Source of the DNA: Ostreococcus lucimarinus
Taxonomy: Eukaryota
Assembly: GCA_000092065.1 (NCBI GenBank)
Contig: CP000593.1
Reading direction: 5' to 3' (one strand)
Length of the DNA: 64,000 nucleotides
Positions 50,406 to 59,007 of the stretch are shown here, one piece after another (position 1 is the stretch's first letter; each line of letters opens with the position of its first letter). The position numbers and the translations under genes were made by a program. The notes under the pieces were generated by a model. That model did no database searches, had not been told where the DNA came from, and saw only the letters and a program-made list of their open reading frames with translations.

Positions 50406-50960
50406 TCAGGCGCTCTGTGGGACGGCAGATTTGAGCCACTCGCGCATCGCGCGCTCGTTCCCCGCCGCGATGGATTCGGACGTCAACTTGGCGACGTTGT
50501 GCCACTCGAAATCCTCCTCCGCGTACGCGCGACGAACCGCCATGATCCGCTCCGCCAGCGTCGGATTCACTCGCGTCAGCGCGATCAACCACTGTTCGCC
50601 GTCGCGCACGGGATTCGCCTCGAGATAGTCGAGCAAAAACTCGTGCGACGTCGTCACTCGTCTCGCTTCTCCTTCGCCGTCCTCGCCGGCGTCCTCGCCC
50701 GCGACCGACCGACGCGGCGCCACGTTTTCGAGCTGCGAGATCACGATCCACGCCGACACGTACGTCAACATCGCGTTCATGAGCTCGCTCGCTCTGCGCT
50801 CGGGCGACACGCCTCCGAACGCGCCCGCGGGGACGAACATCTTTTCGTCATCCCCGAGCGAACGGCGGCGCGCGAACCGACGCGAGCGACGCGAGGGACG
50901 CGAGATGCCGACGCGCGCGGGCGCGGGCGAAGCGACCGTCACCGCGGTGAACGTCGTCAT
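50406..50960 (-). CDS. RbcX-like RuBisCO assembly chaperone (tentative) with transit peptide
   Basis: ELMNAMLTYVSAWIVISQLENVAP and LIALTRVNPTLAERIMAVRRAYAEEDFEWHNV resemble the RbcX helix 1-2 and helix 4 regions. ATG at 50960. Confidence 0.5.
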   Translation of the reverse strand: MTTFTAVTVASPAPARVGISRPSRRSRRFARRRSLGDDEKMFVPAGAFGGVSPERRASELMNAMLTYVSAWIVISQLENVAPRRSVAGEDAGEDGEGEARRVTTSHEFLLDYLEANPVRDGEQWLIALTRVNPTLAERIMAVRRAYAEEDFEWHNVAKLTSESIAAGNERAMREWLKSAVPQSA

Positions 50961-51127
50961 CGGCGGCGCGCGCGGTCGAGGGCGGCGCGCGGTCGAGGGC
51001 GGCGGGCTGTGGGACGCGCCGCACTCCCGGGTTGTACCGTTGTACCCTAACTAACTTTTCCAGACGCAGGCGAGGCGCGCGCGAACGGGACGAAGGCTCG
51101 TCGACTGATATGATACGACATGAATCT

Positions 51128-53569
51128 CTAGGACGGTGGCGCGCGACGGCGCCAGCGAATTAAGACGGAGTCGAACATGGGCCAGTTGGCGCACGGAAGC
51201 GTCTCGTCGCGGTCGAAGGCGGCTTCGAGCTCGCGTTGGAATTCTCGGGAAAAACTCATGCCCGTGGCGGTGGTTCCGGGGGCGTAATCGCCAAATGTGT
51301 GATCTCGCCATTCGCCAATCGTGATGATGGTGTCGCCGGTGTAGTTGTCGAGCGTGGCGGTGGCGTAGTCGCCTTCGCCCGCGATGTCGATCCAGGAGAG
51401 CAGGAGCGCTCTGTCGGCGTGCTTGGCCGCACTTTCGGGACCGCCTTTACGTATTCCGTCGAACCAATTCACTTCGGTGAGCTTCGAGGCGCCAATTTTC
51501 GCAGCGCCGCCGTCTTGGTACTCTTCGTCGAACGTCGGCGTGTCGTACGCGATGATATCGACGCCTCGCTCGGCAAGCCGACGAGCCCACAATCCGCCGC
51601 CGGCGCCAACTTCGACGAGCGGCGCGCACTCGGCCAAGAAATCGAGCGCGATCGACGTGGGGACGCTGCAAGCGTGGCGACGCTTGAGCGCCGCGGCCTC
51701 GGCGCCAATGGAGTTAAGATCGGTGATATCTAAGATACCGCACGTCGCCCACTGCGAGAGCAACCACGCGCCCCACTGCTTAACCTTGCACGTGTACACA
51801 CCCGGAAGGAGCATCTCGCCCTCTTTACCGTTGTGCGGGTGCTCCTCTCCGGCGCTGCCATCTATCTCCAAGTCTGCCATGCGTTCAAGGTCGGCATACG
51901 CGGATGCATCGCACGTGGGTATGGTGTCAAACGGCCACGTCTGCGCGTTCGTCGCCGCGCGATTCGCGACGTCATCTTCGGTGTGACCCATCAACCACAG
52001 GTACGCCAAGTTGATCGTCTGTATGTGCGCCGCGACAGGCAGCGCGTCCTCGATCTGTCGAGCATAACGAGCAACTGTTGGGAGCATGGCTTCCACTTTA
52101 GGCCGGCGCTTTCGGAGCTCATGTAACCAACGACAGCCATGACTTTTGCACGTGACGCACTTTGGATCTTCGCACAAGCCCTCTTTCCGCGTCACCGCGG
52201 TGCGCGTCACATCGCGAACAACGGCGTCTAATCTCACCGATGACTCCGCAAATGCTTTTGTCGCGATTCTCCGTTCACCAGAACGCACGAGAAGAGCTAA
52301 ACGTCGCTTGTAAGGCACGTCCGCGAACGGTTTTGCCAATTCGGTGGCGTCGCTCTCGGCGTCGCCGACGGTGAAGCCTTCGCACACGTCTTGGAAGATC
52401 AGCTTGAGCGACGCCAACGCGGCCATTTCGTTCGCCTTGGATATGTACGTGTTGCCGGTTTTGTCGTTTGCACTAGCCATGATCGCCTTGCGCACCTCTG
52501 GATCCGCTAACTCCTCGTCGCCGAGCTGCTGCACGCGCGCCATCATGCGCAGCGGCGGCGGCAACGGCTCGCGCTCGGGCACGGTGTGCTTGACGATGAA
52601 CTCCGCGGTCGATTCTTCTACTTCTAATTCTTCCGCACTGGGCGTATACAGTTGCTGGTACAGCATGGGCAAATACGGTTCGGCGTAATCGCCGCTCTCG
52701 CGCCACCGAGCGTCGATGTCTTGCAGATACGCCACCGCGCTCGCTCGAAGCGCGGTCTCCAACACCGTCTTTCTGAGCTTATCGACCGTAATCGTGAGGG
52801 TCACGTCTAACTCCTCGTAAGGGTTGTCATCGATGCAAAACCCATACCACGTCAAAAGCTTTGAATTCGCCGCCTCACCACTGCCGTAGGAAATAAACGC
52901 TTGCTCGCCCGCCTTGTAGTCGTCCGCGGCGTACACCGTGACGCAGTTCTTCTCCGCGTTAAGCTTGTGCGTCTTCCCCAACGGCGCCTTCGCGCTGTGA
53001 TTAAAAATATCAAACGTCGGCACCATCGCCCGAGTCCGCTTCCCGTCCGGCATCAACAAATCGCACTGCCTCGACCATAAATTCGACCTCGCCCACGCGT
53101 ATCGCTCGTAATCGACCTCGTGTTCGCGCATCCACCCCCCCTCCCCGATCGCCTCCATTTTTTTCGTCAGCGTCTCGTAATCATTTTTCGTCTCCTCCCT
53201 CAGATTCATCGTCTCCCTCAGGCACGTCGTTCCCGTCAGCTCTCGCAGCTCTTCCTCGCTCCAGAAGAACGCCGTGTCGAAGCTTCGCGGCAGCGTCGCC
53301 ACGTGCGCCGCGCGCGTCGCCTTTTCACCCCTGAACCGCTCCGCGCACACGTGCAGCGCGACGACATCGTCGTGTCGCGCGCAGCACGACGCGACGCGCT
53401 TCACCGCGTCGTCCTCCAGCGCCGCCGCGAGCGTGAACCCGCGCTCGAGCGGAATCTCCAGCAGCACCTCCCCTCGCGCGCAATCGCGCAGCGCGCGCTG
53501 CCCGCGCCCGGTGTCCGCGAAATCGTGCGCCTCGACGCGTCGCGCGAGCGTCGCGTCGTCGCGCGCCAT
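51128..53569 (-). CDS. SET-domain protein-lysine methyltransferase (RuBisCO-LSMT/SETD-like) fused to a C-terminal Rossmann-fold (class I) methyltransferase-like domain
   Basis: SET: GEVLLEIPLERGF...VPTFDIFNHS...GEQAFISYGSGEAANSKLLTWYGFC, then an LSMT-like substrate-binding region. C-terminal class I motif LVEVGAGGGLWARRLAERGVDIIAYD. The upstream 285 codons of the track ORF are Arg-rich and trimmed to the ATG at 53569. Confidence 0.7.
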   Translation of the reverse strand: MARDDATLARRVEAHDFADTGRGQRALRDCARGEVLLEIPLERGFTLAAALEDDAVKRVASCCARHDDVVALHVCAERFRGEKATRAAHVATLPRSFDTAFFWSEEELRELTGTTCLRETMNLREETKNDYETLTKKMEAIGEGGWMREHEVDYERYAWARSNLWSRQCDLLMPDGKRTRAMVPTFDIFNHSAKAPLGKTHKLNAEKNCVTVYAADDYKAGEQAFISYGSGEAANSKLLTWYGFCIDDNPYEELDVTLTITVDKLRKTVLETALRASAVAYLQDIDARWRESGDYAEPYLPMLYQQLYTPSAEELEVEESTAEFIVKHTVPEREPLPPPLRMMARVQQLGDEELADPEVRKAIMASANDKTGNTYISKANEMAALASLKLIFQDVCEGFTVGDAESDATELAKPFADVPYKRRLALLVRSGERRIATKAFAESSVRLDAVVRDVTRTAVTRKEGLCEDPKCVTCKSHGCRWLHELRKRRPKVEAMLPTVARYARQIEDALPVAAHIQTINLAYLWLMGHTEDDVANRAATNAQTWPFDTIPTCDASAYADLERMADLEIDGSAGEEHPHNGKEGEMLLPGVYTCKVKQWGAWLLSQWATCGILDITDLNSIGAEAAALKRRHACSVPTSIALDFLAECAPLVEVGAGGGLWARRLAERGVDIIAYDTPTFDEEYQDGGAAKIGASKLTEVNWFDGIRKGGPESAAKHADRALLLSWIDIAGEGDYATATLDNYTGDTIITIGEWRDHTFGDYAPGTTATGMSFSREFQRELEAAFDRDETLPCANWPMFDSVLIRWRRRAPPS

Positions 53570-53635: not shown

Positions 53636-54529
53636 ATGGCGCCGCCGCGCGTCGCGCGCGTCGACGTCGCGCGAACGAGCGTCGCGCCGCGACGCGCGCG
53701 ACCGTCGCGCGCGTCGACGATGCGCGCGACCGCGCGCGCGACGGCGACGGCGCTGGCGCACGCGGACGCGGACGCGGGCGGGACGTACGCGTTCGAGCGC
53801 GAGACGACGGTGACGCGCGTCGCGACGCGCGACGACGGCGGACACGAGATGACGCTGGCGTCCACGATCGCGCACCCGGCCGGAGGCGGGCAACCGAGCG
53901 ACTCGGGACGGGTCGTCGGCGCGAACGGGCGAGCGTGGGCGTTCGACGCGGCGACGCGGCGGCGCGAGACGGGCGAGGTGGCGCACGCGGGAAGGACGAA
54001 GCCGCCGTTCGAGGTCGGCGATGCGTGCCGAGTGACGATCGACGGCGCGAAGCGCGTGCTGCACGCGAGGATACACTCCGCGGGACACGCGCTGGACGTG
54101 GCGATGATTCGCGCGGGGTTGCCGCCGACGACGCTGACGCCGACGAAGGGGGTCCACGAACCGGCGCTGGCGTACGTGGAGTATAAAGGGAAAGTCGACC
54201 CGGAGCACGAGTTGGCGGACGCGAACGCGCTGATGGCGCGATTGAACGCGGAGATGGCGAAGTTGATCGCGGAAGACGGGGCGTCGGCGGCGGCGGAGAT
54301 GACGTACGACGAGGCGAAGGCGGCGTGCGGGGGAGAGCTGCCGGCGTTCATCGCGCCGGATATGACGCCGAGGATCGTGACGATCGTGCCGGATACTCCA
54401 GGGTGTCCTTGTGGGGGGACGCACGTCGCGAGGATGTCGGAGATTCAGGATTTTAAGATGACGGGCGTGCGCGTGAAGAAAGGAGTCACGAGGCTTTCGT
54501 ACGCTATTCCTGGAATGGCGACGTGGTGA
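53636..54529 (+). CDS. AlaX-like aminoacyl-tRNA trans-editing protein (alanyl-tRNA synthetase editing-domain homolog) with presequence
   Basis: TIAHPAGGGQPSDSG, HSAGHALD, PCGGTHVARMSEIQDFKMTGVRVKKGVTRLSY. In-frame ATGs at 53636 and 53720; the upstream ORF part overlaps the SET gene. Confidence 0.7.
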   Translation: MAPPRVARVDVARTSVAPRRARPSRASTMRATARATATALAHADADAGGTYAFERETTVTRVATRDDGGHEMTLASTIAHPAGGGQPSDSGRVVGANGRAWAFDAATRRRETGEVAHAGRTKPPFEVGDACRVTIDGAKRVLHARIHSAGHALDVAMIRAGLPPTTLTPTKGVHEPALAYVEYKGKVDPEHELADANALMARLNAEMAKLIAEDGASAAAEMTYDEAKAACGGELPAFIAPDMTPRIVTIVPDTPGCPCGGTHVARMSEIQDFKMTGVRVKKGVTRLSYAIPGMATW

Positions 54530-54583: not shown

Positions 54584-55858
54584 TCACTCTGTGGATTCGA
54601 ACATCGCGCGCAGGGTGTTCTTGGCCGCCAGGCGCTTCTCTTCTTCGGATACGAGTTCGCCGAAGTAATCCAAGCGCTCCGCGTGCGAGTCCATCTGGAC
54701 CAGATATTGGAACGGGTAGATGGCTGAGTTCAACAGCTCGACGCGTTCTTCGCCGTATTGTTCGTTCATGCGCTGAATCTCAGCTCTGATATCGTCCGGA
54801 ATGCTCTCGAAAGATAATTGCAGTTGGCGGCCGTCGGATAAGTCGACGCCCGAGTCTTCGAGAAACTTGCGCAACATTTTCTGAATCCCCGCTTGCAATT
54901 CGTTCTCGCGATGCGTCACGCGGCTTTGCAGCAAGCTTTGCCACAGGTTGACCAAGCGCCAGAATCCCATCTTTCCGCGCTTGGCGCTGATGGGCGCCGC
55001 GAGCTCGACGTCTTTGGTGAATCGAATAGGCTCGTCCACTTTTTCTTGCATGTCGATGAGCGCGCGGAATCGCTCCTCGAGCGCCGTCTCCTTGTTCGTG
55101 AAATCGTCGTCCAAGTCGCAATCTTCGAACTTTTCCGTGACAACCTTCAAGAACGAGCTGCGATCGCCCCACACGCGATCGTTCAGCGACCGCACCACTC
55201 GCACGCGCTCGATGACGGTGTGCGAGCACACGAATTTCACCTGGTCGTTGGTCTGCTCGCTCACCTCCTTCAAATCGTCCAGGTAAAACACCGCCGCGAC
55301 GGACGCGAACTTCCCCGGCTCGTTCGGCGCGCACATCGGCACCACGAATCTCCGCGAGCCGTTGAACAGAATCTCGTTGTACATGCTTCGATACCTCGGT
55401 TCAAAGATATTCAGCACGTGTTCCGTGTCCGGCAGATACACGTGACTCCCGAGCGGAAACATCGGCATCACCAGCTCTCCCTCCGCGAGCGTCGGCGATT
55501 CCTCCGTCTCCCTTCGCACGTCCATCACCGGCATCCACCGCACCTTTCCCGCCCAATCCCTCGGCGCGCTCTCGTCGAACGACCCCGACGCGTCGTCCGC
55601 CTCCTCGTCGTCCTCGTCCTCGTCGTCGCCCCTCGCGCCGCGCGCGAACCCTCGCGCGTCGTTCCATCGCCGCGCGTCCCGCCCGCGACGCTCGCGACGT
55701 CGACCCGGTCCCGCGCGTCGCGCGTCTCGTCCGCGCGGCGCGCAGAGCGTCGTCGCGCGCGCGCCGTTCGCGCGCGCGCTCGACGCGAATCGCGATGACG
55801 TCGTCGGCGCGTGCGTCGCGCACCATCGCGCCGTGTGCAGCGCGCGCGCGGCGAGCAT
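54584..55858 (-). CDS. LON N-terminal (substrate-binding) domain protein with transit-peptide-like leader
   Basis: LVMPMFPLGSHVYLPDTEHVLNIFEPRYRSMYNEIL matches the Lon N-domain signature. No AAA+ or protease domain follows. Confidence 0.65.
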   Translation of the reverse strand: MLAARALHTARWCATHAPTTSSRFASSARANGARATTLCAPRGRDARRAGPGRRRERRGRDARRWNDARGFARGARGDDEDEDDEEADDASGSFDESAPRDWAGKVRWMPVMDVRRETEESPTLAEGELVMPMFPLGSHVYLPDTEHVLNIFEPRYRSMYNEILFNGSRRFVVPMCAPNEPGKFASVAAVFYLDDLKEVSEQTNDQVKFVCSHTVIERVRVVRSLNDRVWGDRSSFLKVVTEKFEDCDLDDDFTNKETALEERFRALIDMQEKVDEPIRFTKDVELAAPISAKRGKMGFWRLVNLWQSLLQSRVTHRENELQAGIQKMLRKFLEDSGVDLSDGRQLQLSFESIPDDIRAEIQRMNEQYGEERVELLNSAIYPFQYLVQMDSHAERLDYFGELVSEEEKRLAAKNTLRAMFESTE

Positions 55859-56001
55859 GTCGCGGGCGCGGCGTCCGGAGCGCTCGCGCGCTCGCTCGCG
55901 TCCGGAGCGCTCGCTCGCGTCGCGCGCGTCGCGTCGCGCTCTGCCGGCGCCGGTCAGTCGTCGTCGTCGTCGTCGATCGGCATCGCGCGACGCCGCGCGC
56001 G

Positions 56002-56163
56002 ATGGATCTCCGACGCGACGCCCGCGCGGACGGCGCGTTCGCGCGCGAGTTCGCGCGTCGCGCCGTCGGCGCGACGGACGACGCGCGCGCGATGGCGTCG
56101 AGCGCGGCCGCGCACGCGTTCGTTCGCGATCGAATCGCCGCGCGATTGCGCGCGCGCGACGAC

Positions 56164-56211
<48 letters not shown>

Positions 56212-59007
56212 TACGAGCGCGACCCGGTGCGGGCGATCATGCGCGACGCGGGCGCGGAGGATTCGGATTCGGATTCGGATTCGGCGCGCTCGAGCGACGA
56301 CGGCGGACGCGAACGACGCGAGGCGACGGCGACGACGCGCGGCGAGCGGGGCGTCGTCGAGCGGTGGATGGCGAAGAAACGGGACGTGCACGAGAGACAC
56401 AGCGGACGAGGGACGATACAGGTGTCGATGGCGTTTGAGATCATATCGACGAAGGCGAAGGGGAGCGCGGGCGTGGAGGCGCGATTGGCGGAGTTGGAGA
56501 ACACGGCGACGGGCGCGAACGCGCAGACGCACAGGATATCGCAGCAAGAGTACGTGACGCGGTTGCACAGGCTGAACGAGGACATCGCGAACGCGTGGTT
56601 GGCGGAGGATCGGGTGAACGCGCTGAAATTGTGCGTCAAGGTGGCGAAACTGTTGGGCGACACAAAGGTCGGGAAGTTTTATCCAGTGCTGTTCGTGCTG
56701 GTGACGGAGGTGATCGAGACCGTGGGTCGGTTGGTGTACGATCGGATATTGCGGAAATCCGAGGAGTCGACGTCGGAGGGGGGGACGAAGGCGTTGCCGG
56801 AGGACTTTAAGGCGTCGCGCGTGAGAACGGTGGCGAAGAATACGTGCAGAAATTGGTTTTACAAAATCGCCACCATCCGGGACATCGTGCCGCGGATTTA
56901 CATGGAGCTCGCGCTATTTAAGTGCTATAGATTCATTCAAGACGAGCCGCCGACGGTGCAAATACGACGACTGATGAAGATGTCTCGCGGAGTGGCGGAT
57001 CCGCTCGCGGCGGCGTACGTTCGCATGTACATCGCAAAGTGCGCCCTGGCGTACGGCTGCGAGACCGAAGACAGCGCGATGACGTTGGAAATATTGAAAG
57101 AGTTCATGCCGTCCTACGTGAACGTGCTCGACGAGACCGCTGACGAGGACCCAGCGACAGCTTACATTTTCCGGCTCGGCTTGCGCCGAACCGAGTACTC
57201 GGAACTCATGGATCCCGCCATGGAGTGGCTAATCGAGTGTTGCGCGACGAACCCCAACCCGTCGCTGCTGCATAAAGTGCTGTATATGGGCGGTGAAACT
57301 CCGCCAGTGCCGTTCCTTCGCGCCGTGTTTCGCTCCTTGTCGCCGACGGTCGTTCGCGAAAACGCCCTCAAGCTCATCGCGCTCGTGGGCGCGACGTCCA
57401 CGGATGAAGATTCACTCGAGCATAGGGACGCCATGGCTGATTGCTATCGAACCCTCGTCGATAAGTTTGATGTCATCGCGCCAAACGAAGGCGATCGGTT
57501 GGCGATATTAGGCGACGTTTGGCGCGTCGTGCAGAAATGGACTCACGTGGAACCGTATTTGCGCGTCGCCGAGCGGTTTTTGCTCTACGTCATCAAGTAT
57601 CTCGCGCAAGGTGAACTTGAGACGTTGATGAAGGACGTTGCGAGACACGTGCACGCACACTTAGCCCAAGCTAAAGAGCGCGAGCCGACGAAATCGGCCG
57701 AATTACCCGCCGAGGCGATGCGCTGCGTTGAGCGGGCGTTACGCGTCGTCACCGATCAATTTCGCGACGTCGATTACCTCGTCTCCTTGAAGTGGTACGT
57801 GTACCTCGGCGAAATATTAGGCGGTGAAGCCAAGGTGAAATTTAGCGCCGCTCTTCTGAAGTGTGGGTCGAGCGCTGGATCCATCTCGGATCCCATGTGT
57901 TTGCACACCCTGCTAGAAGCCGCGAGAACGGTACACGACGATATCGACGGCATGAGCTCGGAAGAATCGCGCGCCGAAGCTGAAAGCTTGGTCGTGGACT
58001 TCATCAACAACGTCAGCTTTGCCGGTGACTTCGAGGCGCACTTGAACTTCCTTGTCACCGCTCGAAGCGCGTTCGCAAACTTGGACATGGCGCAAGAAAT
58101 TTTAGTATACCACGCGATTTCTCTGATGACGAGTGTGTACGAGCGCGTGGGCGTCGAACACACGAACAAGACGAAAGCCTTCGTCAACGCCTGCACGGCG
58201 TACTGTCAAATCACGATACCCAGTGTGCGTGGAGTCAATGTTCGCCTACAACTGTTCATGCTCACCGCGCAAGCGGCGATCGTGCACGGATTGATTCAGC
58301 AAGTGGATGGTCTGATTCGCAGCGCGGTGACGGATGCGCAAGAGAGCGGCGGCGAAACCGCCGTGGGCGGATGGATCGATCTTCCCACCGATCGCGCCGG
58401 CGCTGAGATGCTAGATTTCGTTCGGCGATGCAGTGCTCTTCTCGTGGTACAGCCAGGGAATTTAGAAAAAGGAGCATTCTTGGTCTTCCGCGGGTTGATG
58501 AAAGTCGTGGAGGATTTCGATTGGGAGCCGTCGAGCGCCGACGAAGTTCGCGCGTACGTCTCGTTGATCCCCATGATCACTGCCATGGCGCAAGAGACGA
58601 TACCCTTTAAAATCGACGGCTTACAGTCCAACGACGTGCTATTCGCCGGAGAGGAGGCGTACGTGGAAGAAGCCACCGAGCTCGCGCACGAACTCATCCA
58701 GCGAGCGACGGATTTAGCCGGCAACGAATCATCGCTCGCAGACGACGACGGCGAGGATGACCAAGCCGAGACCACGCACAAGTCTCGCGCGCGTGAATTC
58801 GCGCGCGTCAACGTCGAGCTCGCGGAGGTGATCGCGATGACGTGCAAACCTTCGCCGGAGATGCTCGCGCTCGCCGCCGGCGTCGTCGATCGAGCGCGAC
58901 GCCTCTTGCCCCCAGACGTCGTCGACCCGGTCGCGGCGTACGTCCACCGACTCCTCGACGACGCGCCGATGGACGTCGACGTCGACGCGCCTCGCGCGCG
59001 CGAGTAG
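56002..59007 (+). CDS. large conserved alpha-helical protein, possibly VPS35L/retriever-subunit-like
   Basis: Non-repetitive 800-residue C-terminal body (YVTRLHRLNEDIANAWLAEDRVNALKLCVKVAKLLGDTKVGKFYPVLFVLVTEVIETVGRLVYDRI...). Start chosen at ATG 56002 to avoid overlap with the divergent LON-domain gene; it could be further downstream. The family name is a weak guess. Confidence 0.5.
56166..56210. repeat. (GAC)15 microsatellite encoding a poly-Thr15 tract
   Basis: gacgacgac...gac, in the N-terminal region of the 56002..59007 ORF. Confidence 0.8.

Follow-up and report, generated by a model that had tools for sequence, protein, structure and literature searches.

A single gene of the picoplanktonic green alga Ostreococcus lucimarinus encodes a protein in which two structurally unrelated methyltransferase folds are joined in one polypeptide; the characteristic motifs of both folds are conserved, and the fusion recurs in many other organisms. 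The gene is located in a stretch of 64,000 nucleotides of contig CP000593.1 (assembly GCA_000092065.1), which we call the window and to which all positions refer unless stated otherwise. From the N- to the C-terminus the protein is composed of a SET domain, a helical substrate-binding domain of the Rubisco LSMT type, a helical linker and a domain with the Rossmann fold of the class I methyltransferases, which use S-adenosylmethionine (SAM). We lean cautiously towards the reading that this one gene provides two catalytic methyltransferase domains and that the protein or complex methylated by the first domain receives a further methylation, at another position, from the second. Catalysis by both domains, a protein as the substrate of the Rossmann half and a substrate common to both halves are what we infer. 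The parts of the gene, some of them delimited with AlphaFold2 (AF2) models, are the following:

51128..53569, minus strand: complete single-exon coding sequence of the SET/Rossmann protein, an uninterrupted open reading frame (ORF) of 813 codons plus stop
52820..53536, minus strand: SET domain of the LSMT/SETD3 type, residues ~12-250 (Pfam, PDB search, residue table)
52205..52819, minus strand: Rubisco-LSMT-type helical substrate-binding domain, residues ~251-455 (Pfam, Foldseek)
51809..52204, minus strand: structured helical linker, residues ~456-587 (AF2 model)
52133..52174, minus strand: cysteine cluster, residues 466-479 (sequence)
51674..51808, minus strand: two-helix N-terminal extension of the Rossmann domain, residues ~588-632 (alignment, AF2)
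51137..51673, minus strand: core with the class I SAM-methyltransferase fold (Rossmann, seven-beta-strand), residues ~633-811 (AF2, motifs)
51593..51619, minus strand: motif I, the SAM-binding glycine loop LVEVGAGGG, residues 651-659 with E653, G655, G657 and G659 (sequence)

The first-pass annotation, made from the sequence alone, had described the gene as one continuous ORF, and we find indeed neither a stop codon nor a change of frame across 2,439 nt. The length of the product had been given as 814 amino acids; here the ORF stands but the number does not, as the stop codon had been counted and the protein has 813 residues. All of these are 100% identical to the O. lucimarinus CCE9901 protein XP_001421068.1 / UniProt A4S6B9, which is named "predicted protein" / "SET domain-containing protein". 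When the ORF is extended mechanically it reaches upstream to position 54424. The first in-frame ATG is M1 at 53569, and this is the start chosen in both the NCBI and the JGI gene models, which stem from independent gene callers. There are full-length orthologues that are 69-78% identical, further, more distant ones reach 23-51% identity per domain, and the architecture is the same in all of them. Given the identical annotated protein and these orthologues, we conclude that the gene is not a chance ORF.

The N-terminal half had been proposed in the first-pass annotation to consist of an LSMT/SETD-type SET domain followed by an LSMT-like helical region, and both Pfam domains are found above threshold: SET (PF00856) at residues 21-229 with 24.4 bits (gathering threshold 22.4) and Rubis-subs-bind (PF09273) at residues 324-435 with 25.6 bits (threshold 21.6). 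In a search of all PDB chains the best relatives by sequence were SETD3 (E=1.5e-21) and the pea Rubisco LSMT (E=1.6e-15). [quoted passage not shown] When the full-length AlphaFold model was compared with Foldseek, about 460 residues superposed on SETD3, LSMT and SETD6, with target-normalised template modelling (TM) scores of 0.66-0.70 for SETD3 and 0.73-0.75 for LSMT. The Pfam matches, the aligned catalytic motifs and the superposed predicted fold together make it well supported that the N-terminal half belongs to the LSMT/SETD3/SETD6 family. The first beta-strand of the SET domain begins already at residue 12 which, by inspection of the model and of the start codon, leaves no room for an N-terminal transit peptide. 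The protein is therefore most likely cytosolic, and its SET half most likely acts there on a non-histone protein, with lysine, or possibly histidine, as the target residue. The first-pass annotation had named it a lysine methyltransferase; the closest solved relative, SETD3, is a histidine methyltransferase, and we regard the lysine specificity as putative.

The SET half is tied to the Rossmann domain by a linker which is structured over most of its length. The predicted local distance difference test (pLDDT) score of the model is 85-96 to about residue 560 and 62-79 over residues ~561-590, with helices within H472-567, and among close orthologues the linker is 65-81% identical. The full-length AF2 model has a pLDDT of 87.6 and a predicted TM score (pTM) of 0.87, which suggests that the domains are held in a defined arrangement. 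A cysteine cluster, CEDPKCVTCKSHGC, had been pointed out in the first-pass annotation and is located in this linker at residues 466-479. All four cysteines occur only in the closest orthologues (69-78% identical), one of which has a serine at the last position; elsewhere the cluster is reduced to CxxCxxC or is gone. We therefore rejected the idea of a conserved zinc site and regard the cluster as specific to the lineage and not as a defining feature of the protein.

For the C-terminus a class I methyltransferase-like domain with a glycine-rich motif I had been claimed. The motif is present, and the claim about the domain holds with respect to fold and family but not with respect to the curated sequence profile, because Methyltransf_23 stays below its threshold on this protein. 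The AF2 model of the domain (pLDDT 86.1, pTM 0.81) has seven strands which alternate with helices in the canonical manner. Besides motif I the landmarks of the core are D676, which ends beta2, W726-I727-D728 after beta4 and G752-E753-W754 after beta5. The codon of Ile727 is at 51389..51391 (minus strand); isoleucine is found also in two close orthologues, and proline is kept in other Ostreococcus-like orthologues. Profiles of the domain built from 7 and from 42 sequences retrieved only class I methyltransferases from the PDB (best E=0.0063), the matches running via motif I and beta2. As nothing beyond motif I and beta2 is covered by these matches, we rejected assigning the domain to a subfamily on their basis.

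The fusion proteins and the wider family agree on the residues that are retained. In the 24 fusion proteins E653, G657, G659, W661, W726, D728, G752, E753 and W754 are invariant, and the glutamate of motif I, G657 and G659 are likewise invariant in an alignment of 42 diverse family members. The aspartate that closes beta2, D676 in our protein, is present in at least 90% of this alignment. In class I enzymes an acidic residue in this place binds the ribose hydroxyls, and the loops after beta4 and beta5 normally bind the substrate. As read from the alignments, the conservation in the family (motif I, beta2 Asp, W-P-D/P, G-E-(W)) falls where a working class I enzyme would need it. The proteins with a SET partner form a subfamily with a signature of its own, W-P-D-[YF]-x-G-x-G together with G-E-W and the extra helical hairpin. 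This two-helix extension is found in the SET-associated subfamily, including the diplonemid proteins described below, and is mostly missing from the members without SET domain that we examined.

The first-pass annotation had suggested searching for orthologues of the fusion, and the order SET, substrate binding, Rossmann is indeed found in many other organisms. Fusions of this order, ~730-930 residues long, make up many of the relatives that score best with the C-terminal domain. They occur in the chlorophyte Tetraselmis striata and in dinoflagellates and their relatives (Symbiodinium, where the protein is named "RBCMT", Prorocentrum, Polarella, Yihiella, Gymnodinium, Biecheleria and Amoebophrya) as well as in MMETSP transcripts, and proteins derived from Trinity transcripts also span both domains. 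As several of these fusions are transcript assemblies, both domains must be present on one mRNA in the respective organisms. The domain order given in the first-pass annotation is thus confirmed by the domain searches, by the predicted folds of the two halves and by these further fusions. Among distant fusions the identity to the Ostreococcus protein is 34-46% in the Rossmann core, 23-38% in the SET domain, 16-30% in the substrate-binding domain and 11-28% in the linker, so that no segment is as well conserved as the Rossmann core. In P0047, which stems from an MMETSP transcript, the SET domain has lost both its NHS motif and its catalytic tyrosine and every Rossmann motif is kept. This disfavours the view that the Rossmann domain is a decaying or merely structural appendage.

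A second set of fusions, ~770-880 residues long, has the reverse order and was found in the diplonemids Diplonema papillatum, D. japonicum, Artemidia, Sulcionema, Namystynia, Flectonema and Hemistasia. In P0036, P0040, P0049, P0050, P0053, P0054, P0059 and P0064 the Rossmann domain is N-terminal and is followed by the SET domain. The diplonemid proteins, for example KAJ9454780.1 of Diplonema papillatum, contain the same Rossmann subfamily as the O. lucimarinus protein, with the hairpin and both parts of the signature, and like it they combine this domain with a SET domain in one polypeptide. However, the domain order is opposite and the SET domain is not of the LSMT type: in the nine reverse-order proteins neither the LSMT-type SET profile nor the substrate-binding profile finds a match. 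P0040, the one member that we checked against solved structures, has a SMYD/AKMT-like SET domain (E about 1e-10) with a cysteine-rich post-SET motif. The reverse order and the SMYD-like SET domain lead us to regard the diplonemid proteins as a probable independent second fusion. One Rossmann subfamily that is found with two different SET families, and in opposite orders, is a textbook indication of coupling in function, and going by these architectures the two domains probably work together.

The Rossmann domain itself belongs to a very large family of orphan proteins. A profile of residues 585-813 was searched against 1.84 billion representative proteins and retrieved 3,684 clusters of 50% identity at E<=1e-3, and 1,668 at E<=1e-10. 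The domain also matches phrog_19090, a family of "unknown function", over residues 48-180 of the 232-residue domain (E=9.4e-12, 46.2 bits). Members are found in phage-like contigs, in haloarchaeal and giant viruses, in bacteria, archaea and protists, and the named sources include Phytophthora, Peronospora, Bdellovibrionales, Acidimicrobiia and Promethearchaeota. Standalone members of ~170-260 residues are encoded in phage-like contigs and in the haloarchaeal viruses HGTV-1 (gp67, annotated "AdoMet-MTase"), PhiCh1 (ORF83) and phiH. The best structural matches in BFVD were "Methyltransferase" models of Klosneuvirinae and of Bodo saltans virus (E=8e-11, TM 0.61-0.69). In three phage-like contigs the standalone member (L004 6001..6675, L005 6001..6672, L006 6001..6654, in coordinates of the respective locus) is located amid many small ORFs; all three match phrog_19090, and the neighbours include a DNA ligase, a ribonucleotide reductase, an endonuclease VII, a dCMP deaminase and a CHAP domain. 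Other eukaryotic members are joined to ankyrin, TPR, zf-MYND and JmjC_2 modules (among them P0077 and P0127). GIY-YIG nuclease domains and SEC-C motifs are further partners within the family.

Under the reading that we favour, which takes up the idea of the first-pass annotation that two methylation steps may be coupled on one substrate, the protein would work as follows. The SET domain, with SAM, the NHS motif and Tyr228, would methylate a side-chain nitrogen of lysine, or possibly histidine, in a non-histone protein, which would be held by the helical substrate-binding domain. Through the largely well-modelled helical linker the Rossmann domain would be tied to this SET half; it would bind SAM as well and, where the SET half has recruited a protein or complex, would methylate this at a second position. 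More tentatively, and with rather less confidence, we entertain a wider idea. The phrog_19090-like Rossmann family might, as a whole or at least in its SET-associated subfamily, be an unrecognised class of protein methyltransferases that acts together with SET enzymes on a shared substrate and has been joined to them at least twice. The joinings counted here are the one to an LSMT-type SET domain in green algae and dinoflagellates and the one to a SMYD-type SET domain in diplonemids.

A number of observations weigh against an active, protein-directed enzyme in the C-terminal half, and they have to be set against the conservation described above. On this protein the Pfam model Methyltransf_23 reaches 14.6-15.9 bits at a threshold of 27 and covers motif I only, no model of a characterised methyltransferase family scores above threshold, and the NCBIfam matches are at noise level. 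No member of the family carries a functional name, the source records saying hypothetical or uncharacterised. The position of D676 is occupied by serine, threonine or asparagine in 8 of the 24 fusions (in 7 of 19 distinct lineages when near-duplicates are collapsed), and residue 727, a near-invariant proline in nearly all relatives, is isoleucine in our protein. The lack of a profile match above threshold and the variation at these two positions would fit a pseudo-methyltransferase, that is, a structural module or one that binds SAM or S-adenosylhomocysteine and regulates the SET half or aids the recruitment of the substrate; the pTM of the full-length model would also fit a rigid scaffold. 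Methyltransf_23 is found at E<=0.001 in 30 of 47 multi-domain relatives, with one member above the threshold at 28.3 bits. Against a pseudo-enzyme argues the distribution of the conservation, as the Rossmann core is the best-conserved part and the invariant residues are concentrated in three loops, the one for SAM and those that follow beta4 and beta5. In addition, standalone members occur widely among viruses and prokaryotes, where there is no SET partner to be regulated, and the pattern seen in P0047 is the opposite of what a regulatory appendage predicts. We consider a pseudo-methyltransferase unlikely.

Another reading accepts an active Rossmann methyltransferase and assigns to it RNA, DNA or a small molecule as the substrate, so that the fusion would couple two different processes. 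The viral side of the family speaks for it. Relatives are found in phage-like contigs and in haloarchaeal and giant viruses, and some members are fused to GIY-YIG nucleases. The gene of PhiCh1 ORF83 (L007 2438..3013; 51063..51638 of the record) directly follows genes of putative DNA methyltransferases: it shares 4 nt with the end of ORF82, a putative N4-cytosine DNA methyltransferase, and lies two genes past ORF80, a putative C5-cytosine methyltransferase. Such an arrangement is a hint that a DNA-modification module may include the viral members, and with the viral and phage-like context a nucleic-acid substrate would fit for at least part of the family, which weighs against our reading. The eukaryotic domain, on the other hand, has repeatedly been combined with partners that bind proteins or modify them (the two SET families and the ankyrin, TPR, MYND and JmjC_2 modules), and the SET-associated proteins differ in signature and hairpin from the standalone viral and prokaryote-like members, which have W-P-P-Y. 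A non-protein substrate of the algal protein seems to us improbable, to about the same degree as a pseudo-enzyme. A trivial explanation would be a gene-model artefact, two adjacent genes being read as one ORF in GC-rich DNA, and the window does hold many long spurious ORFs. However, the frame is continuous, the linker is conserved and for the most part modelled with confidence, and the identical architecture occurs in many lineages, including transcript-derived proteins across both domains. Moreover, the orthologues have no start codon at a conserved position in the C-terminal domain which could mark a separate gene. Two merged genes were therefore rejected, and an artefact of this kind is effectively excluded. 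We thus stay with two methyltransferase domains acting on one protein or complex as the favoured, still conditional, reading of the fusion.

The gene is located in nuclear DNA. The identity of the product to the O. lucimarinus protein places the window in the nuclear genome of this alga, and the GC content of the window (~63%) and the eukaryotic neighbour genes, which encode VPS35L, eEF1A, RbcX and a LON-substrate-binding-domain protein, agree with this. Adjacent to the SET gene are:

53636..54529, plus strand: AlaX-like divergent neighbour with a tRNA_SAD domain, outside the SET gene and given for context only
50406..50960, minus strand: gene of the RbcX family (Rubisco assembly chaperone; Pfam RbcX 55.9 bits), directly downstream of the SET gene and on the same strand

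The first of these had been reported as an AlaX-like gene located head-to-head at a distance of 66 bp, and this was borne out by the tRNA_SAD domain and by the ATG at 53636, which leaves a spacer of 66 bp to the ATG of the SET gene. This neighbour is real, and we give it no functional weight. A 69%-identical relative (L008) shows the same order AlaX-like, SET-methyltransferase, RbcX, which the locus of a 42%-identical orthologue (L009) does not have. As the RbcX adjacency is absent from the latter locus and the protein has no transit peptide, we rejected it as a clue to a role in Rubisco biology and read it as local synteny. An Rfam scan of the window gave no match. Between 49000 and 56700 both strands contain many overlapping ORFs of 100-400 residues, rich in Arg, Ala and Ser and placed in several frames, which are typical of GC-rich DNA and are not evidence of genes. 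In the VPS35L-like gene (55795..59007, plus strand) a run of 14 threonine codons is present near the N-terminus.

The sequence has already been public as a predicted SET-domain protein, and what is new is its interpretation: an enzyme of the SETD family with an added, uncharacterised domain of the class I methyltransferase fold, and a convergent fusion in diplonemids. In the literature we found no description of a fusion of SET and class I methyltransferase domains or of the Rossmann family, although subscription papers were covered incompletely, so that this absence is no proof. Nor is the fusion described in a published survey of SET-domain architectures in Archaeplastida, in which Ostreococcus was included. 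The SET and the seven-beta-strand enzymes are the two structural classes of protein methyltransferases and are normally separate proteins. Their conserved fusion predicts that one enzyme methylates its substrate at two sites or by two kinds of chemistry, and it offers a way into the function of a very large family of orphan proteins. Should the Rossmann family indeed be a class of protein methyltransferases that works with SET enzymes, the fusions would be a Rosetta stone for thousands of orphan proteins of viruses, prokaryotes and protists. Ostreococcus can be genetically modified and the system is therefore experimentally tractable. We see in it a good experimental lead, which overturns nothing that is established.

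When the protein is compared with known systems, its N-terminal ~455 residues have the two-domain build of SETD3, Rubisco LSMT and SETD6, the identity being only ~21%. None of these enzymes has a C-terminal Rossmann methyltransferase domain, unlike the O. lucimarinus protein. SETD3 is the N-methyltransferase of His73 of actin, and two residues of its histidine pocket, N255 and W273, correspond to Cys168 and Phe186 in our protein; on account of these differences orthology to SETD3 was rejected. The plant LSMT carries a chloroplast transit peptide, whereas there is none ahead of the SET domain here. The O. lucimarinus protein is orthologous to neither SETD3 nor Rubisco LSMT.

With its relatives around phrog_19090 (HGTV-1 gp67, PhiCh1 ORF83, phiH and the giant viruses) the C-terminal domain shares the motifs of the family. 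The viral and prokaryote-like members that we examined are standalone proteins, whereas the O. lucimarinus domain is fused; the standalone members in the alignment are without the N-terminal helical hairpin and have W-P-P-Y after beta4, where the SET-associated subfamily has the hairpin and W-P-D. As a working analogy for the mechanism we regard the dual methyltransferases of the METTL13 / Efm7 type, which modify two sites on one substrate, eEF1A. Both there and in the O. lucimarinus protein two methyltransferase domains are present in one polypeptide. In METTL13, however, both domains are of class I, whereas the O. lucimarinus protein combines two unrelated folds, SET and Rossmann.

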